Shown piece after piece: positions 17,652 to 62,116 of a DNA stretch of 64,000 bases. This DNA comes from Psammoneis japonica. Lineage: Eukaryota. A model generated the notes under the pieces. The model ran no database searches and was not told the DNA's origin. It saw only the letters and a list, made by a program, of their open reading frames with translations. The translations under genes were made by a program, and so were the position numbers. Every line of letters begins with the position of its first letter. Positions within the stretch are counted from its first letter, which is position 1. The DNA lies in NCBI GenBank assembly GCA_008632985.1, contig QPGO01000153.1, positions 1 through 64,000 of the forward strand. Direction: 5' to 3'.

Positions 17652-18327
17652 GATGCGTGAAATAATGCCCCCCTTGTTGCGCAGTTCTTGGATATTAGCG
17701 GCGCAACAACACAATGCCATGCACAGCGTTACTTGTGTCGTTGCTGTGCGTTTATTTTTTTTCGTCGGTGATCGAAAGTCTGTTGCTGCTACGTGACGAT
17801 TGGTATGTTTCTACGGTCGTAGAAACAATACGACAGACTCTGTTTTGAAAATGTGTTTATTTCGTATTCTTCTCTGTACATGTACATTGAACATTTATTT
17901 ACTTTTAGGGATGAACATTGGATAAAACAAGTGGTGCAACGTGCTCACAAAATGCATCCAAAAAAGTGCGACCATAAAACGGCTTGAATAAGACCGCCAC
18001 AAACGTGTTGCATGAGGCGCATGCAACTTGAAGTACTCATGAATTTCTCAAACTCTACATCCGACGCCATTGCGTCACTCGAAACGCAGTTTCAGTACCT
18101 GTTCCCCGCGTATAAGATCCGTCGCTTTCCCATTGGCACTCTCGGAGTTACTAAGCTAAGGAACAGACTGACATACGAATCATACTGCAGGCCTACAAAT
18201 CGCTTTCCGAAAACAATTCTAGGAGTTTCTGCAGCTATCATTCAACTTTTCCTTCAGAAATCAATACAGTCCTACTAATATACCTTTCTCCGGTACTCTA
18301 CAAACTATTTTCAACATGCACTTCCTT

Positions 18328-20989
18328 TTATCCCGAACACTCTTGGCAACAACTGCACGCCTCCATACCACCATTTTTGCTACAATCTTCCTTTAAAAAG
18401 TCGGGTGATTCCTTGGTTTTGAGTTTACACACGGCTTCGGGGACGACACCAGTAAAATTGTTTTCGGAAAAACGAAACACTTGTAGTTTTGAAAGATTGG
18501 AGATGGATTCGGGAAGGGTACCCGAAAAGTTGTTGGAGTTAATGTGGAGGAATTCTGAGAAAAGAAACGAATGGATGAATTAAGAGGATTGAAAAAATAA
18601 CAAACGGTGTCATGAGTTGAGTTGTAAATGACAATGCATGGCAGTGGCGAAAATACATCCCACCCATGCCTATCTACGTACCGAGATTCATCAAATGCGT
18701 AATCTCATCCGGGAGTTCGCCACCAAGTCTGTTGTAACTGAGTCGCAAATCCACTGAAAGAACAAAAGACAAGCCATGCATTATTTGAGTTCAAGTACAA
18801 AAATACCTTGTTTGACGTATTATCGCAATCACACGTACCTATTGACTTCAAACCCTTGATGGTGGCTGGAATGGTGCCTTCAATCTCATTGTGAGCAAGG
18901 TTTAGAGTTACCAACTTGGCAAGGTGTCCCAATTCATCAGGAATGCTTCCACTCAGCTGGAAATAAAGAACGACAATTAGAAAATTATGGTGAGATTGAC
19001 AGGTTGTATGTAAAAGTTGAAAAGCAACATGTCACCTCCTTCTGACCTTGATGTCCTCCATTGACAATTCCTCCAAGACTTTCAACGTTCCGGCTTCGGA
19101 CGGAATGACTCCCTTGAACGAGTTCCCGTCTAGTTTTAACTTTTCTGTAGACGAAAGAGAAAGAAATGGGCATGAGTCGCCGCTATTGAATTCGACGAAA
19201 ATGTGCTACACAGCGAGCAACTTACTGAGATGAATGAATTTGGGAAAGTCTGGAAGATCCCCATTAAAGTCATTCTCACTCAAGTCAAGAGATCCTGTGA
19301 ACGCACAAAGTGGCAGTACAAGGTAAGAAGAGCAGCACCATGCACCTTACTCAGACGACAGAATACTATCACTTACGAAGTTCAACAAGACTGTACAACT
19401 CGGACGGAAACGATCCCTTGAGGTGGTTATAGTTCAAGTGAAGATTGCGAAGACTGAAGCATTCGCCGAGCTCGGTTGGTATTTCACCCGTGAGACTGTT
19501 CTCTTGTACCTCGAGCGCAACTAGAGGAGAAGTCACATCAAATCGAAAACGTAAGGCCGATGAGTCACAACTAGCCGAATTTATCCAAATTCATTCAAAT
19601 ACCGGTATCTGTGCGCACTTACCGAGATGTTTAATGTTGCCGAGAGATGGAGGAATCTTTCCTGTCATGTCGTTTTCGCTCAACCTTAGAATCTCAAGAT
19701 TTTCCAACGCAGCAAGCTCGGACGGGATGACGCCTTTCATGTTGTTCATTGCCAGTTCAAAATGTACAACCTGAGCTCCCTTCCCGCCCTGGGTAGCAGC
19801 ATTTCTGCTTTCGGACTGAGTTCCGTCGCACTGAATGCCATGCCACTTGCATATCGAACGCTTGGTCATCCAATTCACGCTTTTGTCCCAATCACAAGAA
19901 GGTGTGGTCGTGCTACCCGATGCACCGGCGTTGGTGGAGAAAAAGAAGGTAGCCAATGCATACCGCTGAAGCAGTTCTGGGTGTCCGACCTCCAGCTGCG
20001 CCTCGTCCGAATCAACAAGCCATTTGAGAGCTTTGTTTTGCGCAGTTTTGGAGTTGTCCAGGTCACCTTTCGACGTAAATCCCGACTCGTAAATAAAGTT
20101 TCGAACAAGAGTATCTCGGTCCATATCCGTGACTCCACTCTCTTCCTCTGGTGGAGCCTTGGGAGATTCCATTTCAGGTGTCCCATCTTGCCCATCCGAA
20201 GAACTGAAATCAACAGTGACCACCACCACAGCACCGATAGCTACCAGAAGCAGAAAAAGAAGAGTAAACATGGACACCTTTTTCTGCTTTGTGGTACAAG
20301 AGCAAGGATGAAGGATTGGATCGATAACCCCCATGCAACACGTTCCAACTGGCGCAAAAATACTTCCCTGGTTATTTTTGTTTATGCGCCGGGGAACACC
20401 GAAACTCAAGTGACGGAAAGAAGTATTGAGATTGACGTCGTGCATTGGATCCGAAACACCCGGGCTTTCGAATCCACGGATATCCTTGAGCCGAGCCGAA
20501 TCTTGTTCAATCCCCGTTTTGGCAAAAAACATATTTGCTCGTGAGGATGCAGAATCATTCATGGTACCATTGGTTTTCTGCTGGGTCGTAGCCGGAGCCA
20601 ACTGATCTTCATCGTCTTCGTCTTCATCCCATAGGAAACGACGAGCACTCTAATTGTTTGCGAAATAGAAGAGTTTGTAACAAGGTAAACTAGGTAAGAC
20701 ATCGGTTCAGAAAATGATACAGCGATTCTTTCGACGCATTGCAACATACCTCAATCGCTCCAGTCGGCGCTTCGTGAGAAGAATTGTTGTCCATTGGAGA
20801 ATTCTTCTTTGCGCCGTCCGCACTCGGAAAAAAGGAAACAATGGAGGCCTCCTCTTCACCACCTTCGTGCTCCCCCACATCAGCTGCAACTATTTGTTTG
20901 AAGTTTTCCAACTGTCTCTGGCGTTCCAACTTGCGCTCATAGTCGGTGCGTGTCTTGTCCAGAGCGTTTCTGCTGTGCGTAGAGGACAT
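18328..20989 (-). CDS. Type-II single-pass membrane leucine-rich-repeat protein (paralog 1), multi-exon
   Basis: Intron 1 at 20650-20749 followed by SARRFLWDE. TM helix MFTLLFLLLVAIGAVVVV. Cap QRYALATFFFST...NWMT...CKWHGIQC. LxLxxNxLxGxIP exons. C-terminal DC...CSCCQEC. Confidence 0.85.
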
Positions 20990-31648: not shown

Positions 31649-33351
31649 CTAGACGTTTCTCATCACTACATCCACGTCATCATCTGTCTCTTCCATTGCA
31701 TCTTCGCTCATAGCAGTCATGCGCTCACCTGTATTACCGCTGATCGAACTGCCGTTTTGGTGCCGACGTCTACTGTCAGCTCTCCGTCTAGCAAAGGATT
31801 CCACATACTCTGACTTGACCGAATCGTCACCGCTAATGTTGGTGCCGCCGTGATAACTAATATCCAATCCAATCAACTCTTCAAGTGAATCCGAGCGGAA
31901 CCAACCCTTGTAGTTTAACCATATAAAGAATGGAAACATAATTGTCACCACCCACCCCAAAATGAAGAGTGCTCCACAACACTGACATGCCAAGAGCGTA
32001 GCGTCCGAGCTTCCTCGACCCAACGAATAAAACCATCCCACATGCTTATCGGTTAGAAAGGCTGCTTGCATGCGAGAGGGTGAGGCAAACAGCCCAACCG
32101 CAATCACACCCCACAACCCATTGAAAAGATGGACCGGAATGGCGTCGACCGCGTCGTCGAGACGTTTCTTGATGAGCAAATGGCTCGACAAGAGATACAA
32201 GAGCCCGGCCAAGGCTCCAATCACCACGGCGGCCCAGGGTTCCACGACACCACAACCACCCGTGACGGCCACCAAACCACTCAGTGCACCATTCATGGCC
32301 TTTAACAAATCAAAGTGGAATTCACCGTACATGCGTTCCTTGATGATGAGATTGACAAAGAGTGCCGTGACACAGCCCGAAGCAGCGGATAACGTTGTGG
32401 CGACTGCAGCCACGGCTGCAACCTCTCCTTGATTGACCGTGGGACTCAATGTGAGTGCCGAACCAGGATTGAAACCGTACCAACCAAACCACAGGATGAA
32501 GGTACCAAGCATCTAAAGACAAGAGGAAGGAGCAAAACCTCGTGAGTTCACTAAATCGACTCAGCAAACAGGAGGATGCTTGCAAAGAGGAATCATATAC
32601 TAACCTGTAGTGCAGCAGAATGCCCAGGCATGGGCTTGGGTTTTGCAAGCGGGTTTCCACGAGCGTCGTAGAATCGCCCTTTACGTGGTCCCAACACGAT
32701 TGTTGCAAAGATCGCGGTAAAACCACCCGTCACGTGAACTACACCCGAGCCGGCAAAGTCAATCATGCCACTGTTCAAAAAGGGATCAACATTGGATGCA
32801 CTCAGAAATCCGTTGCGGCTCCAAATCGAGTGAGCTACAACCGGATAGACAAATCCAGTCATGAGCATGGAGTAGCACAGATATGCGACCATTTGACATC
32901 GTTCCGCCAGCGTACCGGCAACGATTGTCGCAGACGTGGCTGCAAAGGCAAACTGAAACAGCCAGAATGCCAAGTCATCGATTCCGTACATGAAAAAATT
33001 CTCGTGACCGATAAACGTCGTCTTTGTGGAATTCTCTTGTCCCCCAAACGCAAAGGCATACCCCACCGTGAAGAATCCCAACGCCGCGCCACAGGCATCG
33101 AGCAAGTTTTTCATCATGGAATTTTGAACATTTTTCAATCGGACGCTACCCGCACAAAGCATAGCAAAGCCAGCCTGCATGAAGAATACCAGTGCTGCGG
33201 CAAGAATAAAGAACCATTGAGTGTTGTTGTACGTTTCGGTTTCTGCTGCGTCTTGCAGGGATATCGAAACACATTCCAACACGGCTTCACTACTCCCCTG
33301 AGAACCAACGTCGGATTTGCAACTTTCATAGAAACTACTGCCGCCACTCAT
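31649..33351 (-). CDS. AMT1: Ammonium transporter, AMT1 family; two exons
   Basis: FFMQAGFAML, FQFAFAAT...GTLAER, DFAGSGVVH, LWFGWYGFNPGS, DDAVDAIPVH. GT-AG intron at 32513-32604. Confidence 0.95.
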
Positions 33352-33860
33352 TGTTCTTGGCTATTGTGTGTATGGTATCTTTTGATGCATACCGCTCAAC
33401 GTAAGCTTTGCTGCTGGTTGCTGCTACTATTGTTGTTGTTCTTTTCTTCCGTGAAATGAGTGAGAGGTTTTGTCGCACTGGGTTCGGGTGAGTGACATGG
33501 TGCAATGTCATGCAGGGGGGCAATCTTTTCGATGGGTTCCGGTTTCGCGCAAAGTTGCGACGTACCTTTTTCATTGAGTTCAATTTGCAATGAGAGGGGG
33601 GATAGAGGGGGGATTCTCTTTTTGTGGTCATCCAACAAAGCCCGGACAAAACCGACCAGCAAGGACAAACCTGACGCTTCTTGATCGCATCGATCATTGA
33701 CCTCGTATTTATACCGGTACCCATGCTGGTCCGGCAAAGTCTGGTAGATTGTGATTATTACTTTAAAAAACAGCTACCAGCGTGTAATTTTAAAACAACT
33801 AAAACTTAAAATGAAATGTATTTGTGAGCACCACGCATTATTTCTTGTCCCTACTCTCTA

Positions 33861-36800
33861 CTAGAAGCAATCCGTGCAACACGTGCACATGACAGCTTCG
33901 CAGTCTCCGTGCAAGGTTTCCAAATTGTGCTCGGTTCTTAGCTTGCACACGCCATTGGGGATCGCACCGGAGAAATCGTTATGTTGAAACTGGAATTCAC
34001 GCAAGTGAACCAGGTTGGAAATTGACTGGGGAATTGTACCCGACATGTCGTTGCCAGCGATGTCCAAAATTTCTATATAGCACAAACAGAAGACGGCGTA
34101 AGAGAGACTACCAACCAAAGAGAGCATACCATGATGAAATGCTTGTTTCAATGCTTACCAAGTTTGAAGAGATTTGCAATGGCATTAGGAAGCGTTCCGG
34201 AAAACGCATTGTGCTGAACTTGCAAATCGACTGCAAATCGGGGAGAAAGCAAAAACAAAATAGAATGAGCAACATGGATTTCCATCAAGAACGGATCGCA
34301 ACAGACTTACCCATACTACGCCAATTTAACAAGGGCAATTCACCACTCAAACCGTTGCTGAATAGATGGAGCGATGCTGTTGAACACGCAAAGATGTTAG
34401 GTCGCTGAGCTATATAGCGAGCGCATTGCCTGATTGGTCGCCTTTTTGAACTTACTGAGTGCCTGAAGTGACTGATACTCGTTTGGCACAAAGCCTGTCA
34501 GCTCGTTGGTATCCAAAATGAGGTTTTCTGAAACAAGCATTCGAACAACAGTAACGGTGAGCAGACGGAACCAAGAATAAATAATCAATAGAGACGATGC
34601 CGGAAATACAGATCTGATTTCGTGTCGCAACGTACCAAGCGCAGTGGCGTCTGAAAGGGTTTGTGGGAGCTCGCCTTGGAACCTGTTCTTGTTCAACTGC
34701 AAATAAGCTGTAGAATCGTGTAACCGTAAACCCCAACAAATATGTAAGCCACGTGAGGTGGACCGGGACACACCAACGTTATCACAAGAAGCACTTACTT
34801 AGACGCGTCAAATCCGCAAAGATTTCTGGAATCTCTCCTGTGAGCACATTGTGGTCCAAGCGAAGGGACTCTGAAACACACATTTCATCGAGTACAAGTA
34901 AAAGGAAGTAAGCAACAGACAAAGGGGAAATGGCGATTGGTAGTCGCATTGGTACATTACACACTACATACCCAGGGCAGTGAGTTCCATCAAAGACAGG
35001 GGAATTTCGCCAGTGAGCTGGGGGGGAAAGAAAAGATTACAGCGATGTTAGCACCAGCGTCTCTCTCAGAACAAAAGGGGGGAATGACAACCATGAAAAC
35101 TCACCCCATTCCTCCCAAGATTTAGCTCCACTGCAGAAAAGAAGACAGATCGAGTGAGCTCCGCTGCATGACATCATGACAATGGCTGCACGTCCCGAAA
35201 CTTACTCAGGTTCGTCAAATATCCATAGGTGGCTGGGATTTCTCCGGTAAACTCGTTCTCGGAAAGGTCAAGGCCCTCTGTTTGATTCAAAACAAAATAA
35301 AGAATAAGCGATCAACAACAAAACAGACAATGACATAGACAACGGCAACAGTTCCTCTCGGTGACTTACGCAAAGTAGAGAGCGCTTGGAAGTCTGGGAG
35401 AGGTCCGGAAAGATAATTATCGGCAATTCCAAATGCCTCTGGGTCACACGCAAACCAGAGCAACCACAGAAAGTCTTGTGAGTAAAAATAATTGGACGCT
35501 TTCCTCTAAAGCACAGCGCTGGAATGAATATACTTACGAAGCTTCGTCAGTTGGCTAAATTCCGCCGGGATTGTACCTTTAAGTTCGTTGGTGCCGAAAC
35601 GCATGTGAATGACGTCGGTCAGTTCTCCGAGCCAGGGCGAAAGTGTTCCCGACAACCAGTTTCCTTCAAGATTTAGACGTTCTGAAGCAAAAAATAGTGT
35701 AGGACATTAGCAGACAATACAAACATGTCCCCCAATCTCCAAATCGAAAATGTAACTTACGCAAGTACTCTATCAACCCCAAAGAATCAGGAATTGGGCC
35801 ATACAAGTTATTCCTGTCAAGGTCCAACGTTCGGAGATTCTCGAGTGCTGCAATTTCGGACGGAATAGTACCACCGACATTGTTATTGGTCAGCTTTAGA
35901 TGGAACACAACGTCGTCTTCTTCCGTAAAGGGAGTTTCGTCGTAATCGTCATCGTCCGGATATTCTTCATCGTCATACTCATCACTGTCGAATTCATGAA
36001 AGAACATAAACGATAAAGGTGTAAGTGACCTGGTGCGGTAAAGACGGAGACGTTCATTTCGTTCACTCACTCATCATCACCCTCCTCGTATTCGTCACTT
36101 TTATATTCAAATCGATTGCCAGTAGCGAAAGAACAGATAGCACAAAGCGTTAGAAACCTGGCCTTGCAAAAGCTGGGACACGCGCACATTTCGCTTGCTC
36201 GCTCGCTCGCTCACTCACTCATCGTCCCCGTATTCCTCCTCCATCTCCTCCTCGTATTCCTCCTCCATCTCCTCCTCGTATGCTTCTTCTAGTGCATCAT
36301 CGTCATCGTCACTGTGTTAAATTGATCGATTGGTATTCACAAAAGAACAGACACGACAAACGCGTTAGTCATGTTGTATCAGTCGGGACACGCAATTTTG
36401 TTCGGTCGGTCCAGTCACTCACTCATCGTCGATCCCCTCCTCGTATTCCTCCTCCAACTCCTCCTCATATGCTTCTTCTAGTGCCTCATCATCATCATCA
36501 TCATCATCACTGTGTTAAATTGATCGATTGGTATTCACAAAAGAGCAGATACGACAAACGCGTTAGTAAGTTGTGTAACAGTCGGGACACGCAATTTTGC
36601 TCAGTTCGGTCCAGTCACTCACTCATCGTCGAGGCCCTCCTCATATTCCTCCTCCAACTCCTCCTCATATGCTTCTTCCAGCGCCTCATCATCATCATCA
36701 CTGTGTTAAATTTTTATCGATTGGTATTCACAACAGAGCAATTACGACAAACGCGTTAGTAATGTTGTGTGAAAACCGGGACATGCAATTTCCTCAGTTC

Positions 36801-38408
36801 GGTCCAGTCACTCACTCATCGTCGATCCCCTCCTCATATTCCTCCTCCAACTCCTCCTCATATGCTTCTTCTAGCGCATCATCATCACTGTCAAATTCAT
36901 CATTGATTGCAAGTAACATCACATGCAGATACGACAATAGCGTTAGAAACCTGTTTTTTTTTTGCTCAAACACAGACCGGGACACGCATTTGGCTCACTT
37001 ACTCCTCATCATCATCCTCCCCATATTCCTCATAATCAGTTTCGTCGTCATCTTCGCCGAGGTAATCGTCGTCTGGATACTCCTCGTCACCGAGGTATTC
37101 GTCTTTCTTTTGCAGTTCCTCTTTTAGCTCATCCACCTCGTCTGTCAAGTCTTCAAAATCTTTTTCAAGGTCTTCATAGGCTTTTTCCAACTCGCCATAC
37201 GCCTCATCAGCATCATCTTCGTCATATTCAGGTGCAGCCGCCGCCAAGTTACGACGATCATGCCACAAATTATTGGACTCCCACGTGGTTGCATAATTCT
37301 GATCGGTACAATCGACACCATACCAAGTACAGACACTCTTGCCCGTCATCCAATTGGTCGTGACATTCCACTTGCGATCGTCTTCATCGTCAAAGACAAG
37401 ACCCGAGGGACTGGTCGTCTTGCCCGTGGCACCCATGGTGCTGTAATACAACGTGGCGAGTGCATACCGTTGAATCATTTTCACAGAGGTTTCACCGGCC
37501 TCCATGGGATCGTCTTCGGCCACCCACCAGAGGGCACGTGCTTGGGGAGTCTTGGAGTCTTGAATGACGTCGGGTTCCGTAAAGCCAGACTGGATGATAA
37601 ATTCTTGAATGGCATTGAACCGTGCCGGATTGGAGGGTTTCTTGCCGGAAGACTTGTTGCTCGATACGGCAATGGCCGTAATGATGAGAACCGTAATGAC
37701 AATGAGCAACAACCAAAAGAGACAACAGCGTTTCTGACGACGGGAATATCCACCGCATCGTGCCACGCACGACGTGCACAGTTCGCACATGCAATAAAAT
37801 GGATTCCGTGATCCACCGGAGGATAAGACACGTCCCGTGGAGTGTCCCTTGCGGCTTTGCACAAAGGAACGACGGTAGGCGGCATGAAAATCATCGCCCA
37901 AGGCTTGTTGCGATCCTGAGGCGTGGTGTTGGAGATTGATATTTTCAAATCCCAAACTACCCACGCCGACTCCACCCGATTCAGGATCCAAGGGATTGTC
38001 ATGATAGGAATTGTTGTTGCTATTCTTTTCTTTTCCTCCAGCAATCGAGAGAGGAAAGAGACTCGAGAACCTTCCAGACGATTGACTGTTTTGGGCGATA
38101 GAGTAACCTTCGTCCTCTTCCTCGTCGTCCGATTCTTCGCTCTCCCAGAGAAACTGACGAGCGCTCTGTGTATGAAAGTAGACAAGAGCAGCAAAGTTTT
38201 AGTTGAGAGGTAAGTAAGTATCCATAAGAAAATCTAACACAATATTCAAAAACAGCAGAGCAGAAATCAGCAGTCACCATCACCCTACCTCATAGGCACC
38301 AGGAGAGACATTGTTCAATTCACCATCCGGATCAGGACGGAGGTTGTTCTCCTCTGCCACGACCATGTCGCTGACTTCTTCTTGATTGTCTAGCAAATCC
38401 TTCACCAT
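33861..38408 (-). CDS. Type-II membrane LRR protein (paralog 2) with an inserted acidic micro-exon array
   Basis: Intron 1 at 38166-38288 followed by SARQFLWE. TM CCLFWLLLIVITVLIITAIAV. Cap QRYALATLYYST...NWMT...CTWYGVDC. LRR exons. C-terminal DC...CTCCTDCF. Confidence 0.85.
36071..36887 (-). repeat. Tandem exon-plus-intron repeat (~200-bp period) giving five acidic micro-exons
   Basis: Exons 36887-36816 (72 nt), 36700-36623 (78), 36509-36423 (87), 36311-36219 (93), 36097-36071 (27). Each is bounded by AG|T...GA|GTGAGT. Confidence 0.8.
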
Positions 38409-39078: not shown

Positions 39079-41938
39079 CTACTTGAACCCATCACATTGA
39101 CTGCAACAACTGCACTCAATCTTTGGATCCTTGTCCGAACAATCACCCGCCAGTTCCTTGAAGGGTGTCTTGCGATTATCTTCACAAAACGCCTTGGGTA
39201 CAGTTCCGCTAAAGTCGTTGCGGAAAAAACGAAACGAATCTAAACAAAAAATAATAATAGTGTTAGGCTGCGATTTTCATTTTGTGGCTTACAAGACGGC
39301 CACATTCTTTACTTACGAAGTAGCTTGAGATGCTTCATTTGCCATGGCAATGTACCGGTGAATTCATTGTCTTCCAGGTTGAGATTTTCTGCAATTGAAA
39401 AATGTACACGCAACAGGTTAGGATCAAAAGGCCAATACACAATCGGCAAAACCTGAATCACAAGAAAAAAAGCTACTTGCCTAGACTTGTCATCAAGCCA
39501 ATTTCGGTGGGTAATGGACCACTCAACTCGTTGTGTTGAAACCGGAAGTCAGCTATAACGTTGAAAGGAAAAAACGTAACGGAATAGTCAGGAATGTGAA
39601 TCTCTCATTAGGACTAACACAAGGACCGATTGTTGGCTAAGAATAACTCACACAACTTTGTCAAACCTCCAATGGAAGTAGGAAGTGTGCCAGTCAACTC
39701 ATTGTGGCTATAGTGAAGAACCTCTGTGAGGGAAAAAAAAGACAAGGAATGAGGACAAATGCGAGTTTTTCTCTTTGACATGCATTGTGAAGGAGTTCAA
39801 ACCAGCACAAACACACAAATCGACACGACTTACCGAGATTACCAAGGCCACCAATTTCGGAAGGAATGGTTCCCTCAAGCTGTACAAAAGGAGGCAAAAA
39901 CGAGCAACAACAAAACAACAGCAACATCAACAACATGAGACACATAAAGCTTGAATGTGCAGCGTTCAATACCGACTTTTGTTCAACACACTCACCTGGT
40001 TCTCTCGCAAACGCAATTCCACAAGGTGCGACAATGTCCCGTACTCGGTGGGAATTGTTCCTGTAAACTGGTTTTCACCTTGTTCCAAGATGCCTATGAA
40101 AATTAGGAGACGAAACACATATATGAGATGTCAAAGAGTAGGTACGACTGCTGTAACTCGTATCAATCCCATTTTTACTTACGCAAATTTGTCAGTTTCG
40201 TGGCGTCCAAGAGTGGCCCGGTCAGCTTGTTCCAATGCACACCAAAGTAATCTGCGGATACAAAACACGAGAATAAACCGGGTGAGATTCTGAAAGGCGT
40301 TTTCGATGCTACAAATATGCCAGCAGACTTACGCAAATACTCGAGCTCCTCAAATTCTGTAGGAATAGTACCCTCGAGCTCAATATTGCGGTCAAATTGC
40401 AATACATGAAGCTTCTTGCAGGCTCCAATTTCAGTTGGGATTGTTCCAGTGAGGTTATTATCGCCCAGTCCCAAATGATCTGAAGAACACGGTAAAATAG
40501 AACGGAATTCGTTAGGGCATGCCTTTGAAAGGCAGCGGGGTAGACAATAACTGGTATAAAGGGAACTTACGCAAGTCCTGGAGCTCTCCAAGCGCCGGTG
40601 GGATAGTTCCCTTGAAAGCGTTTCCTCTCAAATCCAAAAACTTCAAACCCTGAAGCCCAGCAAGTTCCGAAGGAATGGTACCCTCAACACCATTCAATGT
40701 GAGGTTAAAGTCCGTGACAAAAGGCCCTCTAGGACTATCACATACGATTCCATGCCATTTGCACACGTCTTTATCCGTCATCCAAAATCTCGTTTCGTTC
40801 CAGTGAGGAGTGAGGATCTCCTCCTCTTTTCGAGTGTTGCTCGAGTCGATTTCGTAGGTGCTGTAAAAGAATGTGGCAACCACATATCGTTCCAGCAACA
40901 CGTCATCGTTATCGCCCACATCCAGTGCTGCAAGATCGTGCTCGGCAAGCCACTTAATTGCATTGTTTTGCGCCGAGCCGGCCTGATCGAGATGGTCCAC
41001 AGTTGTCAGGCCTGAAGACAAAATCATGGTACGAATGGCTTCATAACGTTCCGTATCAATGATAACTTGTGGTGCCTTGGTTTGTGGCGGCTGGGTCTCT
41101 GGCGGCTGAGTCTGTGGTGGCTGAGTTTGTGGCGGGGATGTTTCTTCTCCAGACGATGACGAGGAGGAGGACGACGAAGCAGCCGTCACCGCCATGATAA
41201 TGCCAAAGATTGACAGGGAAACAAACACAACAGCAGCAAGCATCAGCAGCTTGTGCTTCTTTGAAGCACCCTTCCAGACTTGGGAAATACAAACACAAGG
41301 GCGACAGAGATAATAAATGCAGCTCGAAAAGATTCCGCCCATAAATGACACCCTGTCAACGCGTCCGCTACTGCTTCGGTGTTGAACAAAGGACTTGCGA
41401 TAGGCCCGATGAAAGTCGGTTCCAAGACTGCTTCGAATATCCACGGTTGGAAATTCGGCATCCGCATCGCCATACATGGCTGTAGATGCATCGCCACGGT
41501 CCGACTGAAAGCGTGGAGCCAGACTGAGTGGAAATAAGGCTCCTTTTGACTTTTTCGGTTGCATGCCATTGTTGAACGTGTTTAGGGTTCTCACCGTACC
41601 GTTGGAGCCTTTGGTGTAGTACGGGTCTTCTTCAAACTCGTCATCTTCGTCCCAAAGAAACCGACGAGCGCTCTATAGAAACAGAAGTCGTGGCAAGTTG
41701 TGAGACCACCTGTGGTGAGTTTTGTTCTGTAAAAAAGACCTGTCATAATTTGGCACCGTACCTCAAAGGTTTTTGTAGGGCTATGACTGCCGTCCAAAGG
41801 AATGTCATCAGCATTTTCCAAATCCATGTCCTCGGCTAGCACCCCAGTTGTAATGTCCGACATTTTCTGAATCTGCTTTTCTCTTTCCTGCCTTCGTTCG
41901 TAACGAGCCTGTGTTTGATCAATGGTTCCTGGAGACAT
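39079..41938 (-). CDS. Type-II membrane LRR protein (paralog 3), multi-exon
   Basis: Intron 1 at 41673-41761 followed by SARRFLWDE. TM helix, PPQTQ repeats, cap ERYVVATFFYST...CKWHGIVC. 72-nt LRR exons (e.g. 39317-39388, 39481-39552). C-terminal CSCCSQC. Confidence 0.85.
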
Positions 41939-56369: not shown

Positions 56370-59223
56370 CTACCTGTAGCACCGATTGCAACAATTGCAG
56401 GTAATACCACCACCTGGTAAGCAGTCGCCAACAAGATGCTTTGGTTTCCCGGTACCACCCTTGTCACAGAGGTTGTCGGGAACATGACCGGTAAAGTTGT
56501 TTTTAAAGAAATGGAATGAATCTATACGTCGTACAAGAGCAAAATGCAAGTGGTTAGGGACGGAAATGACAGAACACAGCAGTCGGACTAAAAGTAACTC
56601 ACGGAGGTGTTCCAGTGTCCCAATTGCTCCAGGAATGGTTCCTGTCATTCGATTTCCTTCGACGCGGATGATTTCTATAAAACACGTTTGAAACGAGGCA
56701 AGCAATACGTTGAGCATGCTATTTGAGGAAACAGAGGCCAATCTCACATTGACAAGGCCCAACACGTACCGAGGTCTTCAAGAAAGAAGAATTCTTCGGG
56801 GAGAGGCCCAGAGATCTTGTTGTGTGGGATTTCAAAATCGGCTAGAAGAAGAAAGGGACGATTCGAAAGTCAGCAAGAAGTTCCAAGGCAGCTAATACAG
56901 CATGTTTTTTGTTGAAGTACTTACTCAAGGAGGACATTGTCTCAATTGTAGGTGGGATTGTACTAGTCAACTGGTTGAATCCAATCGTGAAGATTTCTGC
57001 AATAGTTTAAAAAGGAAATAAGATGCCGAGTGAGAAGACGAGTAATAGTAGATATATCAAGAGGTTCCACGCATGCTCCTTACTTAGATTCGAGAGTAGT
57101 CCCACTTCCGAAGGAATACTTCCATGAAGCTGTTGCGGAGGAGAGAACATACTAAGGATTAGTCCACTCGTATTATTGCGATGCCTATGACAAGCACACC
57201 CCATTTTACCTTGTTATTGCGAAGATTCAATTGAGCTAGTTTTTGATAGCGGGAGAAAAAAATCAAAGGAGTTGAGAAATCGGGCGATGAGGTGCAGCTG
57301 ATAGCGAAACCTTCGCGACTTACTTAGTGTACTCATGTCTCCATACTCCGATGGGATGGTACCTTTAAAATCATTGTCGTCCAGTTGAAGTATTTCTTTG
57401 CCACGGTGTAGAGAAAGAAGAAGAGATAAGAGAGCATGATCGCAATAAAACAAGAGAGAGGTAGAAAACTGGGCAGATTCACTCACCAATGTGGCTCTTG
57501 CCTTCCATCGTTGGCATTTGTCCCGAAAGCATGTTGACGCCAAGGTTTAAGATACCTACCAGGTAACGAAAAAGAAGCAGAAAGAGCAAAAATCTGAATG
57601 AGCGACCACAGCAGGTAGCAACTTGAAAACAATAAGACTTCGGCAGCATCTTACGCAAAAGCTTCAAAGCTTCGAAGCTAGACGGGACAGACCCATTCAA
57701 CTCGTTATTGCCTAGATCCAATTCATGGAGCTCCAAACATCTACCAAGGCTCTCCGGTAGGCCGCCAGAGAATCTATTATCATGAAGATTCAGGGTTACT
57801 GTACAGGCAACAGGGAAGACCAAAACCAAGCATTGAGAGCCATTGTGTCGGGCTCAAGGTTTAAGCACAAGCATTGTCACTTACTGAGATCTTCGAGGTC
57901 TCCCAAACTCTCCGGAATGGTTCCAAAGAGCGAGTTTCCTCCGAGTTTCAATGTTCTCAAACGATTGAGGGCCTTCAATTCGGATGGGATGTACCCTTCG
58001 ACATTGTTGCTCCTTAAATCCAAATGAACAATGTTCATGTTGTTGTCCGATGACTCTTCGAGGTCATAGATATTGTCCACACAACCAACTCCGTACCATT
58101 CGCAGACGCCCTTGTCAGTCATCCAGTTATCACTTGATTTCCACTGAATCATTTCTTCCTCCTCAGTCGCAGCGGCGACCGCAGCTTGGGGAGGGTGTCG
58201 TGATTCATAATCCGCAGCGGCAACATAGGTTCCAAAAAACAATGTTGCCAGAGCGTATCTTTGCAGCATTCCAAGTGATTCTGGGCGGACATGAGCTATA
58301 TCATTTTCCACCACCCAACGAAGTGCCTTATTCTGATAAGAGGAGTGATCATCCAAGTCATTCACGCTGGTCAAGTTTGCATCAAGAATGTATCGACGAA
58401 TATCTTCATAGCGCTCTGGATCGGACGGAACCAACGGATGATGCGGAACTCCTGTTCCGGGAGGCAAGGTTGGATGTGGACGAGCTTGATCCGAACTCTG
58501 GCTACTTCCTCCACCAGTGGTTGACACAGCAATCGCGACAATGGCGATAACAATTGCGGCCAACAAACCCAAAACAATGAGTTTCTGCCTCCTGGTGTAG
58601 CCCACCCATATGTCAATAATATGATCACCAACATTGGAACATGCGAAAGCTAGTCCCTGCCAGCACGACAGAAAATACCCACCAATCGATGAGACAATCG
58701 GGTTGGGATTATTTTGTGCTTGAAGACTGGCATTTCCGACGCTGTGTGGACCACTAGAATGTCTCCTTTTCCCATAAGCGCTGTTTAAGTCAACGTTGGC
58801 ATAGGCATCGTCCTCACCACGAATAATTGACCCGGTATCCCAATCATCCTTCATGCTCCCCAAACCGGACCCGGACCCTGCAGTGCTAGGACGGTTGAAC
58901 ATTATCTTTTGATCTGCAAACGTATCCTGCTCCTCGTCTGGATCATCGTCTTCGTAACCATCTTCATCATGCAAGAAACGACGAGCACTCTTCAGGTTAA
59001 AAACAAAGAAAGCAGCGATTTGTGTTAGTCTTTCAAATACCACGACTAGAAATGAACAGATATCGCTCGAGTTCCGAACAAGGACACTTACCTCAAAAGC
59101 TTCACGGTTGTGTTCCGAGGTCAATCGCCCAGAGGAATGTGACGAGTTCAATCGTTCCTCCTCTCCCAAACCGTTCGCTTTACTTGCATAGTTGGCTTTC
59201 GCTTGTTCAAACGAGTCGGACAT
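56370..59223 (-). CDS. Type-II membrane LRR protein (paralog 4), multi-exon
   Basis: Intron 1 at 58990-59091 followed by SARRFLHDE. TM LIVLGLLAAIVIAIVAIAV. Cap QRYALATLFFGT...NWMT...CEWYGVGC. LRR exons. C-terminal DC...CNCCNRCYR. Confidence 0.85.
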
Positions 59224-59924: not shown

Positions 59925-62116
59925 TTACCGGTAACATACAGTACAACAATCACATTCAATTTCCCCATCGGTACTCTCGTCGATGCCACAATCACCAGCT
60001 ATGTAATGAAGAGTATTGATTTCGCAAATGTCCTCGGGCACCTCTCCCTTGAAATGGTTATTGAAGAAATGAAACTCAACTGTGGAAAATTGCAAATTGC
60101 GTGAAAATCTTAAGAGGCGAAGATTGTTCTAAATCGCGGCATCGAAATGTAGAGCTTACCTAATTTCTTAAGTTTGCCGAGGGATTTAGGAATGGTTCCA
60201 ACCAGCTCATTTTGATTCAAACGCAGAATTTCTATTAAAACACGATGGGCAGGCACAAACAGTTTTAGGTGAAAGCTCGTCATCACAGCTGAACTGCAAA
60301 TCACAAACACGAATCGTTCGTTCATAACATTCATTTGAAGACCAAGAACTCACTAAGCGTTGTCACACGAGATAACTCCGGGTCGATCTCCCCGGTAAAC
60401 TTGTTGTCATCAATCCAAAAATCAGCTGTTGTGCGTCAAACATCGGAGGAGGTCAGACATGAACACGGTTCAACACGTACAACTTCATGGGAGGGCAAGA
60501 CTTACTCAAATGCTTAAAGGATGATACGTCTGGCATTGGTCCAGTGAAGCGATTTGCAGTGATCTTGAAAGAATCTGAAAAAGAACAGGTACAATTTCAA
60601 AACACATCGAACGTGAGACCAAGCAGGAGGGACAGGACGACAAAGTATTCCTTTCGGCTTGTCACAACTTACGCAATGAATTCAAAAGGCTTAACTCTGT
60701 AGGGATCTTTCCTGAGAGAAGATTGTTATCGATATGGAGGTCACGCAAATCCGTACATCCACCAATTTCAGATGGGATATTGCCTGTTAGCTTGTTCTCC
60801 TGCAGGTGTAAAAGGGCTGGTTGCGCAACAAAGAAAGGTGCAGTATTCATGATGAGATACCGAAACGCGAAAGGGAGCCTGCTTCTCTCTAAGAAAGCAC
60901 AAATGAAACTCACCTAATACATGGAGCTTTCCGAGAGTGGTTGGAATCGTTCCCTTCAGGTTCTTGTTGCCTCCAATGGCTAATGTCTTGAGTTTTGCCA
61001 TAATCGAGAGTTCCGGAGGTAGCTCGCCATTCAGGTTGTTCGCGGTTAAGTTAAGATGAATAACATGAGGAGTGATTCCTACAGCAGCAGACATCTTTCC
61101 GAGTGCACCCGTCGAAGGCACATGGTTTCCACATTTCACTCCGTACCATGAACAAATATGACTCGATGTCAGCCAGCCATCGTTTTTCTTCCATTCCTGT
61201 TGAACCTTCGTAGTGGAAAAGAAGAGTGTGACCATTGCATAGCGTTGAAGCATGTCAAAATGGCCAACCGAAAGCTGTGCTTCATCCTCATCCGATAGCC
61301 ACCTTGCCGCTCGGCTTTGCGGTGAGTTCTGGGTTTTTAAGTCCTTCTCCACTGATACCTCCGAGTCGACCAGATAATCAAGGATGCTATGAAAACGTTC
61401 CTCATCCACGGGGAACTCAACCTCAACTTTCCCGCCTTCCTCTTTAGGGGGCGCTTTGGGAACGACTTCGCCAGAATCTTCGCCTTCAGGTACGGTATAT
61501 CCGTGATTGTCTTCGCCACTAACAACTACTACAGTACCAACAATCGCAATTGCCAGCACAACCATGACAAGACAAGTAAGCATCCTTTTAGGAGAGCAAC
61601 TTCCAGAAAAGGAGGAGACATGCTCTGCTAGAAAGAAGGATGTACTTGGACTGCGATCTTTTCTTTTGCTGATCTGTTTCTTGAGATGGTTGTCTCCTTT
61701 TCAATACCAAATTCGCCGTGCATGAAAGATCGAGATGAGTCGCCTGCATCAGCTCGAAACCTCGACGTACGATTGATCTCGTGCTTTGCTGTTTCGTCTA
61801 GTAGCGAGGACTTGTGAATCCCGTTCACCTGCATTGGTGCTCTACTTGTTTTCATCCACAAATCACCTTCGTCTTCGTCCGATAAGAAGCGACGCACATT
61901 CTATAGAGGAAAATCATACCATTAGATGCACATTCCGTGACCAGTATGAAAATTGTGTGACAGTGGTCTACTTACCTCCAACGTTCCTTGCTCGAGATGG
62001 CCGTTTTTTCCTGGCGGATCAGACCCCCCGTACTTGCTACCAGAAGACGGATTCAAGCTACCGCTACGACCAAAACGTGGTTCTGGGCTGTCAAAATTAA
62101 TTACACCACTGGCCAT
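59925..62116 (-). CDS. Type-II membrane LRR protein (paralog 5), multi-exon; at least one frameshift in exon 2
   Basis: Intron 1 at 61901-61975 followed by NVRRFLSDE. TM helix. Cap QRYAMVTLFFST...CSWYGVKC. LRR exons. C-terminal DC...CDCCTVCYR. Confidence 0.8.

Follow-up and report, generated by a model that had tools for sequence, protein, structure and literature searches.

A putative lineage-specific tandem expansion of acidic exons and their introns in the gene of a membrane LRR protein from Psammoneis japonica

Tandem exon duplication creates arrays of homologous neighbouring exons (see PMC9013439 for a review) and is a generic mechanism by which proteins are extended or diversified. The array described here was found in the gene of an LRR protein, in a window of 64,000 nt (positions 1 to 64,000 of contig QPGO01000153.1, assembly GCA_008632985.1) of Psammoneis japonica. 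It resembles such duplications in its adjacent homologous exons and introns, its single exon phase, and exon lengths that are multiples of three. The well-studied duplications are however mostly mutually exclusive exons that are swapped within a folded domain, whereas the copies of the array are of unequal length and low complexity and most likely additive, with no selector RNA structure found. Another likeness is provided by the PEVK region of titin, for which many small, charged and low-complexity exons have been described, encoding an extensible segment whose length is set by exon number and whose charge aids its mechanics (PMC11040099). By contrast, titin is an intracellular animal spring with more than 100 exons, which are subject to exclusion by RBM20 (PMC11040099), while the array consists of five exons that encode a loop in the ectodomain of a membrane protein from a protist.

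Acidic segments in the vicinity of LRR domains are likewise known from several proteins. According to a preprint on avian ANP32A (bioRxiv 10.1101/274613), this protein combines, as the array gene does, an LRR domain with a long, disordered acidic region of low complexity, and duplication of an exon by the LRR cap, which is alternatively spliced, changes its length. ANP32A differs, however, in being nuclear and soluble, in that its duplication amounts to one insert of 33 residues in which cap sequence recurs, and in the C-terminal position of its acidic region (bioRxiv 10.1101/274613); it bears no sequence relationship to the array gene. In plant LRR receptor-like proteins (LRR-RLPs) the region that follows the LRR C-cap towards the C-terminus is described as acidic, and the repeats are broken up by non-LRR islands (PMC4030839); platelet GPIb-alpha is described with a stretch of acidic peptide behind the LRR domain (PMC3919161) and with VNTR polymorphism (PMC1660532). 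Judged by these accounts, both share with the array gene a strongly acidic stretch on that side of the LRR solenoid which is nearer to the membrane. GPIb-alpha also shares tyrosines in an acidic context, and its stalk shows a length polymorphism caused by tandem DNA repeats. Their segments, however, span 20-40 residues after the C-terminal cap, whereas the linker of the array gene extends over 245 residues from the N-terminal cap to LRR1 and is encoded by an exon-intron array. The acidic segments of plant LRR-RLPs and GPIb-alpha are not known to be interrupted by introns at that place, and GPIb-alpha is subject to tyrosine sulfation.

Among diatoms and oomycetes, a protein of Seminavis robusta and other membrane LRR proteins resemble the array gene in domain order and in a helical cap ending with the motif C-x-W-x-G-[VI]-x-C, but none of the 154 examined has a comparably dense stretch of D+E, and their cap and LRR1 lie a median of 21 aa apart instead of 245 aa. 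LRR receptor-like genes of the same cap and domain type have been described in Pseudo-nitzschia as regulated in sexual reproduction (PMC5485032).

The array gene occupies 33861..38408 on the minus strand and comprises 19 exons between an ATG at 38408 and a TAG at 33861, whose conceptual splicing yields one open frame of 928 aa with its sole stop at the end. The predicted product starts with an N-terminal region without signal peptide, continues with one TM helix, a helical cap domain, the acidic linker and some 14 LRRs, and has a C-terminus rich in Cys. Exon 2 (1163 nt, 37003..38165) encodes the cytosolic part, the TM helix, the cap domain and the opening ~100 aa of the linker, and its AlphaFold model shows TM helix and cap helices at pLDDT >90. 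The cap motif C-T-W-Y-G-V-D-C, located at 37308..37331 by a motif scan, is the final conserved element upstream of the insertion. On the other side of the array, exon 8 (35761..35984) encodes the ~25 last acidic residues of the linker, followed by LRR1 and LRR2 (LRR_1, E=2.5e-7). Pfam matches to LRR_1 were found on exons 8, 9 and 19, with PF00560 above its cut-off in all three LRR exons tested (29.9, 21.4 and 26.0 bits vs 20.6). Repeats of the profile L-x-x-L-x-L-x-x-N-x-L-x-G-x-I-P together with a paired-Cys N-terminal cap would place the protein among the plant-specific type of LRR proteins, in which the cap stands directly before LRR1, whereas in the array gene 245 aa intervene. The product may be described as a single-pass membrane protein, probably of type II, with a plant-type LRR ectodomain. 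Pfam revealed no kinase domain in exon 2, where merely sub-threshold rows of coiled-coil type were returned, over the acidic helix described below, and after the final LRR the protein closes with a Cys-rich tail; "receptor" is therefore only a loose label for this gene.

The window contains four paralogs, whose cap motifs lie at 61154, 58104, 40763 and 19851 and which are all encoded by the minus strand. The preliminary description of the locus had ascribed only a short loop to them, and indeed their cap and first LRR lie in one open frame, separated by loops of ~6-22 residues. Similarly, 136 database relatives possess a short loop at the exact site of the 245-aa linker, and in relatives the cap is separated from the first LRR by a median of 21 aa. 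The domain order of the 928-aa product is that of the four paralogs and the database relatives, and the C, W, G and C of the cap motif are invariant in an alignment of 53 sequences. With 1144 representatives at E<=0.001 this is a large family, and none of the 154 relatives examined contains 60 consecutive residues of which 55% or more are D+E. An exhaustive representative search found no ortholog or close relative (best match 33% identity), word-index protein searches with exon 2 returned distant matches only (24-55% identity with partial query coverage), and none of the 595 pattern matches of a metagenome scan was confirmed. In the model of a paralog (pLDDT 84.7) the part that lies between cap strand and first LRR strand contains a single stretch of low confidence (63), and this is the insertion site. 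A fold search with the paralog's cap and LRR1-2 gave as top matches SERK1, PXY, FLS2 and other plant receptor ectodomains at E 1.5e-3 to 2e-2 (probability 0.97-1.0), with none at E<=0.001; the exon-2 model of the array gene likewise gave none at E<=0.001, and its best rows were unrelated long helices. The cap-to-first-repeat loop of an LRR ectodomain appears to accept a polyanionic insert of 245 residues, a placement absent from all 154 relatives examined.

The array itself begins at the donor end of exon 2 at 37003, where the exon ends in GA and the intron starts with gtaagt, and extends to the start of exon 8 at 35984. In the order of transcription it is composed of intron I2 (115 nt, GTAAGT..CAG, 36888..37002), exon m1 (72 nt, 36816..36887), intron I3 (115 nt, GTGAGT..CAG, 36701..36815), exon m2 (78 nt, 36623..36700), intron I4 (113 nt, 36510..36622), exon m3 (87 nt, 36423..36509), intron I5 (111 nt, 36312..36422), exon m4 (93 nt, 36219..36311), intron I6 (121 nt, 36098..36218), exon m5 (27 nt, 36071..36097) and intron I7 (86 nt, 35985..36070), all on the minus strand. 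Exon m4 contains an internal 24-nt duplication (TRF period 24 x 2.4 at 36225-36281), I6 starts with a GTGA/GCGA microsatellite, and I7 is the most diverged of the homologous array introns. Reading of the minus strand recovers the five acidic exons of 72, 78, 87, 93 and 27 nt that had been proposed between WYGVDC and the first LRR, and bears out their symmetric phase: every exon enters in phase 2 with the letter T, ends in GA, again in phase 2, and is bounded by GT..AG on both sides, such that an Asp codon is rebuilt at each junction. The term micro-exon, which denotes exons of about 30 nt or less, suits the 27-nt m5 and is inappropriate for the other four (72-93 nt). All six array introns are of GT..AG type, and with 86-121 nt they fall inside the range of the other 12 introns (75-123 nt). 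Their acceptors are CAG in five of six; the weak AAG that precedes m5, at the end of I6, recurs at none of the other 17 introns of the gene, and the inclusion of m5, a shortened copy of the unit, is the least certain.

The encoded linker lies in the flexible loop that leads from the final cysteine of the cap to the first LRR strand, and it is longer than the possibly ~200 aa surmised earlier: m1-m5 contribute 119 of its 245 aa, and the remainder is encoded in the two flanking exons. It contains 146 D+E, 7 K+R, 22 Tyr and 1 Ser.

Several observations point to tandem duplication as the origin of the array. TRF reports a repeat of period 193 with 3.3 copies (86% matches, score 933) at 36243..36887, which comprises m1+I3, m2+I4, m3+I5 and most of m4, and a repeat search yielded four copies at spacings of 189, 200 and 193. 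The duplication of exon plus intron with a ~200-bp period, proposed from the sequence at the outset, is thus recovered, and the homology reaches beyond the four units then named, for all six array introns are mutually alignable. Neighbouring exons and introns are homologous, the phase is common and the frame is kept, as in a tandemly duplicated array. The units are unequally diverged, with m4 82-88% identical to m1-m3 and the intron downstream of it, I6, only 62-68% identical to I3-I5. We suggest that nested tandem duplications of a unit of one acidic exon and one intron gave rise to the five exons, and that I2, I6 and I7, the diverged introns on the outside, go back to older rounds, and the 193-bp core of 3.3 copies to a younger one. 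The number of introns at this site would presumably have risen from one to six, and 119 residues would have been added to the acidic, Tyr-rich linker. When the tail of exon 2 is aligned with the head of exon 8, column identity averages ~76% along ~70 nt, all of low complexity, a likeness that is suggestive only of a still older duplication. An introner-like origin was also considered, and no match of more than 12 nt to an array intron was found outside the array within the 64-kb window. The copy number of the 193-bp repeat could be mis-assembled. We regard the array as a real, lineage-specific tandem expansion, by exon plus intron, of an acidic spacer. It would represent a clean and datable case of a protist gene in which introns and protein length are gained at one stroke: as an exon was copied along with its intron, the intron count went from one to six and a disordered linker became twice as long, with selection on the new coding copies already visible.

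The architecture of the gene suggests how these exons may be spliced. All 18 introns are short (75-123 nt), and an obligatory exon of 26 nt (35105..35130), situated within one LRR, serves as an internal control for the splicing of very small exons; since 26 is not divisible by 3, its skipping would shift the frame. This combination fits intron-by-intron recognition with default inclusion: short introns would each probably be removed singly, by intron definition, so that all five acidic exons would appear in the default product. The linker would change in length mainly as repeat units are gained or lost at the DNA level, and not through regulated skipping.

Alternatively, m1-m5 could be cassette exons that are included in varying subsets, resulting in up to 30 protein lengths between 809 and 928 aa and a length-tunable polyanionic segment. 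The in-frame skipping of any subset, on which the preliminary description had relied, holds as arithmetic, and only as such: all 32 exon subsets are open without premature stop, with the Asp codon restored at every junction. Moreover, the donors and acceptors of I3-I5 are near-identical and could pair in any combination, titin PEVK exons offer a precedent for length tuning (PMC11040099), and a time course in Phaeodactylum is reported with skipping in 1099 genes vs retention in 1341 (PMC5859163). Nevertheless, the short introns and the obligatory 26-nt exon constitute an intron-definition signature under which skipping is exceptional, and a search of the introns for a conserved RNA structure capable of exon selection found none (4 pairs, no covariation, -2.6 kcal/mol). 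Nor is phase symmetry evidence of design for skipping, because the duplication of one unit yields it automatically. Skipping might actually serve to tune length in this gene, but we consider a system of cassette exons unlikely.

Third codon positions hold five of the six variable sites among m1-m3 (P=0.018) and seven of eight once the unambiguous part of m4 is joined to them (P=0.0026). Variable sites occupy 1/48 of codon positions 1+2 compared with 18/101 intron-core columns (Fisher p=0.007), codon position 3 (5/24) does not differ from the introns (p=0.56), and with all columns taken together the difference between exons and introns is not significant (6/72 vs 18/110, p=0.18). In all six copy pairs pN/pS lies between 0.05 and 0.34, and indels measure 6, 9 and 15 nt in exons and 1-2 nt in introns. 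These patterns support the small exons as genuine coding exons of one intact gene, although the selection tests draw on 6-8 variable sites in low-complexity sequence and on non-independent copies; purifying selection of this kind would demonstrate that the exons are translated, not that they are constantly included.

The same data bear on the notion that 35985-37002 is one intron of 1018 nt, in which the acidic "exons" are unused relics of duplicated exon sequence. Exon 2 can indeed be joined to exon 8 in frame, giving a protein of 809 aa with an acidic linker of 126 aa. However, third-position bias, low pN/pS and exon indels in multiples of three are unexpected within an intron, GT and AG sites as well as a CTAAC-type block are preserved in every internal segment, and 1018 nt would be eight times the maximum length among the other 12 introns (123 nt), which makes a single intron decidedly improbable. 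Retention of introns as the relevant variation, leading to membrane-anchored cap proteins with six lengths of acidic tail and no LRR domain, or to decay-bound transcripts, appears more doubtful still. A stop is met one codon into each of the six array introns (in I2 the in-frame TAA at 37001-36999, which is read only upon retention of this intron), as compared with 2-27 codons or no stop in the other 12, and retention is reported as prominent in Phaeodactylum (PMC5859163); but the immediate stops are a by-product of duplication, which passed on a common junction of exonic GA followed by GT(G/A)AGTGA, and a truncated product is without support from relatives. Finally, a broken gene or two genes, ending at TAA 36999 with a separate or dead LRR part, is scarcely credible, for although the frame of exon 2, when read through, meets the TAA at 37001-36999, exon 8 is without an in-frame start codon, 12 more exons downstream are open with LRR motifs and the Cys-rich end of the family intact, and cap and LRRs stand on one chain in the four paralogs of the window and in six relatives examined full length. 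We return to coding exons that arose by nested duplications, are included by default and encode a polyanionic spacer, a combination that, taken as a whole, explains the locus best and that we hold to be fairly probable.

With respect to the spacer, AlphaFold predicts an acidic helix of 44 residues (residues 316-359 of the exon-2 product, pLDDT 73-86), and the protein contains repeated helix-prone units of 17 residues. Of the 22 linker tyrosines, 18 have at least three D/E within 5 residues and no K/R/H, a context like that of sulfotyrosine-type acidic receptor segments. A literature search for a diatom tyrosylprotein sulfotransferase returned nothing relevant. Tentatively, the linker could be seen as a polyanionic spacer or loop, strongly self-repelling and helical in part, on the side of the LRR solenoid that faces the membrane; its composition would allow it, with equally low confidence, to hold or shield the binding domain and to bind cations or partners of positive charge. 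The roles initially put forward for this segment, namely cation binding, biomineral interaction or receptor diversification, are guesses. Acidic silica proteins are known that are Ser-rich, and a silica-protein reading was set aside for a linker with a single Ser.

A more far-reaching scenario would make the array a length-and-charge dial on a cell-surface LRR protein: strains would differ by unequal exchange of 193-bp units, in-frame skipping among interchangeable splice sites would create variation inside a cell, with 30 possible lengths, and units with sulfated tyrosines in acidic surroundings would form a variable polyanionic arm that gates cationic partners at the LRR surface. We regard this scenario as speculative and improbable. 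Candidates for such partners are a peptide cue, long-chain polyamines or a surface protein of the mate. If copy number or exon inclusion proved variable, the locus could serve as a simple model of repeat-driven tuning of surface proteins in diatoms.

Further candidates were considered and rejected. Mutually exclusive exons do not agree with a design in which any subset is in frame (32/32), lengths differ and the introns are without conserved structure. Three long plus-strand ORFs over the array match no Pfam family, read through the repeats and are taken as low-complexity artefacts. A search of the ESM Atlas for look-alikes of the acidic tail gave a single match at 0.77, which is uninformative. 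Intron-hosted small RNAs or snoRNAs were dismissed, as the best Rfam rows attain 15-16 bits vs gathering thresholds of 45-86 and no covarying structure is present. The sub-threshold Rfam rows themselves are due to the UGAUGA of Asp codons.

The array gene is read on the minus strand from an ATG at 38408 to a TAG at 33861, where joining of the GT..AG-bounded segments yields 19 exons with a single open frame of 928 codons. The product of exon 2 (38165-37003, minus strand) begins with an N-terminal region that lacks a signal peptide; one hydrophobic helix comes next, then a helical domain with the cap motif C-T-W-Y-G-V-D-C (37331-37308) at its end, and finally the start of a very acidic stretch. 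This stretch continues through five small minus-strand exons, m1 (36887-36816, 72 nt), m2 (36700-36623, 78 nt), m3 (36509-36423, 87 nt), m4 (36311-36219, 93 nt) and m5 (36097-36071, 27 nt), and is completed by exon 8, which starts at 35984 and opens the LRR array. All five small exons start in phase 2 with T and end in GA, so that every junction rebuilds an Asp codon. The minus-strand splice reproduced all sizes, coordinates and phases of the preliminary description, while its term "micro-exon" suits m5 only, exons of 72-93 nt lying outside the usual definition.

Several features support one intact gene at this locus. The six array introns (I2, preceding m1, to I7, preceding exon 8) fall inside the 75-123 nt size range of the gene's other 12 introns; one intron spanning the whole array would measure 1018 nt. 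The part downstream of the array lacks its own start codon and keeps 12 exons open, and LRR_1 scored above threshold on 3/3 LRR exons tested by profile search. Moreover, cap and repeats lie on one chain in all four cap-plus-LRR paralogs of the window (minus strand, 18300-20300, 39100-41700, 56400-58500 and 60700-61700). Between 33861 and 35760 (minus strand) nearly each LRR is an exon of its own, 66-72 nt long, always in phase 1 and with the intron at a constant place in the repeat; the paralogs at 19.4-19.8, 40.2-40.5 and 57.5-57.8 kb hold several repeats per open stretch (94-136 aa). This LRR part may itself be a product of exon-plus-intron duplication, or introns may have been gained in this copy.

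The five acidic exons belong to a tandem exon-intron array that is far beyond chance. Tandem Repeats Finder reports a period of 193 bp at 36243-36887 (3.3 copies, 86% matches, score 933), and a separate repeat search found four copies, spaced by 189, 200 and 193. The duplication of exon plus intron with a ~200-bp period, proposed from a first inspection, is thereby borne out, and the intron homology noted there extends to all six array introns, which are mutually alignable (I2-I7: 115, 115, 113, 111, 121 and 86 nt). Since I3-I5 are 85-93% identical pairwise, and I2, I6 and I7 have diverged (60-69% identity to I3-I5 and among themselves), the array is nested: older duplications left the diverged units on the outside, and the 3.3-copy core was made by a younger one. 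Exon m5 is a truncated copy of the 3' end of the repeat unit, and its intron ends in the acceptor AAG, while the other 17 introns end in CAG (16) or TAG (1). I6 opens with a four-base GTGA/GCGA microsatellite (7.5 copies, 36191-36220) right at the donor site, which hints that the donor GTGAGTGA may derive from simple-repeat sequence beside Asp codons. Across 35985-37002 (minus strand) three short blocks are conserved in I2-I6, which elsewhere are 62-69% identical, and I7 has diverged there too: GCGTGTCCC some 30-40 nt past the donor, a branch-point-like CTAACGC about 50 nt ahead of the acceptor, and CAATCGAT. These may be splicing signals, a pattern indistinguishable from slow decay in copies of one origin.

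Whether the small exons code was judged by an evolutionary test that compares differences among exon copies with those among intron copies, the counts being small and the copies not independent. Third codon positions make up 5 of the 6 variable columns in m1-m3 (P=0.018), and 7 of 8 when the unambiguously aligned part of m4 is added (P=0.0026). Codon positions 1 and 2 vary in 1/48 columns against 18/101 in the intron core of I3-I5, i.e. the columns left after removal of splice-site columns (Fisher p=0.007), while position 3 (5/24) varies like all ungapped intron columns (18/110; p=0.56). pN/pS ranges from 0.05 to 0.34 in all six exon-copy pairs, and length differences are of 6, 9 and 15 nt among exon copies but single runs of 1-2 nt among intron copies. 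A crude comparison over all columns (exons 6/72, introns 18/110) is not significant (p=0.18). Taken together, silent sites of the copies have diverged about like neutral sequence while the encoded peptide was held, which requires translation of the small exons. Judged from sequence, both the anatomy and the coding status of the array are well supported.

The resulting linker, bounded by the last cap cysteine and the first LRR strand, comprises 245 residues (146 D+E, 7 K+R and 22 Tyr; net charge about -139), of which m1-m5 contribute 119; the polyanionic segment proposed beforehand was of possibly ~200 aa. Each unit carries, flanked by poly-Asp runs, a 17-residue stretch in which Leu or Tyr recurs every three to four residues. 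These stretches are probably helix-prone, like the 44-residue helix predicted in the non-repeated linker start (37125-37256, minus strand; pLDDT 73-86, followed by disorder), which itself resembles coiled-coil families weakly, below the threshold. Eighteen of the 22 tyrosines lie in a strongly acidic context without basic neighbours, the setting in which secretory proteins undergo tyrosine sulfation. In an AlphaFold model of exon 2 (53 sequences, mean pLDDT 61) a membrane helix is visible and the helical cap domain is predicted with confidence; a fold search with this model returned no structural match. As the single membrane helix lies on the N-terminal side, the linker would be at the membrane-proximal end of the solenoid; the membrane orientation is suggested by the Cys-capped ectodomain.

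At the site of the array all four paralogs have, as had been described, a short loop; it measures ~6-22 residues and holds no intron. In the AlphaFold model of the 58-kb paralog (cap plus LRR1-2; 44-sequence alignment, mean pLDDT 84.7) the cap motif forms a short strand, with the first LRR strand 16 residues further on, and the loop between them is the sole low-confidence block (pLDDT 63 vs 93 either side), so that the array sits in a naturally flexible loop where the N-cap meets the first repeat. In a structural search with this paralog model, plant LRR receptor ectodomains ranked best (E 1.5e-3 to 2e-2, probability 0.97-1.0; none at E<=0.001). The wider family is large: an exhaustive search gave 1144 representatives at E<=0.001, with a best identity of 33%. 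A Seminavis robusta protein is the sole named relative. In the best 150 of these 1144 matches the top-scoring stretch extends no further than query residue 326, and in 149 of them no further than 308, which places its end at the cap rather than in the acidic tail. The cap motif was present in 136 of 154 relatives examined (170 motifs in total), with a median of 21 residues from cap to first strict LRR match in these 136. The few long distances contain 8-17% D+E and degenerate repeats that the strict pattern missed, and no 60-residue window with at least 55% D+E occurs in the 154 relatives.

The array is a real, lineage-specific expansion, and of a known type of event, here in an unstudied protein family. 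That proteins gain new or alternative segments by tandem exon duplication is well described (PMC9013439), and the PEVK exons of titin are the classic charged low-complexity segment with a length set by exon inclusion (PMC11040099). In avian ANP32A an LRR domain and an acidic low-complexity region occur together with a duplicated, alternatively spliced exon at the LRR cap (bioRxiv 10.1101/274613). In plant LRR receptor-like proteins, acidic stretches occur past the C-terminal cap and non-LRR islands among the repeats (PMC4030839), and GPIb-alpha has an acidic stretch after the LRR domain (PMC3919161) and a VNTR polymorphism (PMC1660532). None of these systems has a multi-exon acidic array between N-terminal cap and first repeat, nor was such an array in diatom LRR proteins found in the titles and abstracts screened. 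The array as it stands overturns nothing established, but the locus is a natural example of intron multiplication simultaneous with linker growth.

A 26-nt exon (35130-35105, minus strand) splits one LRR between introns of 75 and 87 nt and, 26 not being a multiple of 3, cannot be skipped without loss of the frame. Together with the shortness of all introns, it suggests that the array introns would be removed one by one, so that the default mRNA would contain all five small exons, with m5 the likeliest to be missed owing to its weak acceptor. It had been proposed that any subset could be skipped in frame, and indeed 32/32 subsets are (protein lengths 809-928 aa), but this follows from duplication of one phase-symmetric unit and hence is not evidence for regulated skipping. 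If any one of the six array introns were retained, translation would stop after one codon, yielding cap-plus-acidic-tail stubs or decay targets. For Phaeodactylum, a transcriptome study reports prominent intron retention, with exon skipping present too (PMC5859163). Regulated tuning of linker length, or any particular function, is not well supported. Tentatively, the linker might be a polyanionic spacer or loop that repels itself, holding the LRR surface in position or shielding it, and might bind cations or cationic partners.

An introner-type origin of the array finds no support within the 64-kb window, where no copies of the array introns exist outside the array. The only Rfam rows score 15-16 bits, where the gathering scores are 45-86; they stem from UGAUGA strings, which here are plain Asp codons, and no covarying structure common to the array introns was found. 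The three long plus-strand ORFs that cross the array run through the repeat and are without a Pfam match.

The array gene and its four paralogs form a same-strand cluster of five genes within 43 kb, with just 23-47% identity between one another. The next gene downstream (32596-33360, minus strand) encodes an ammonium transporter (PF00909, E=1.2e-49) and has at least one intron near 32515-32605.
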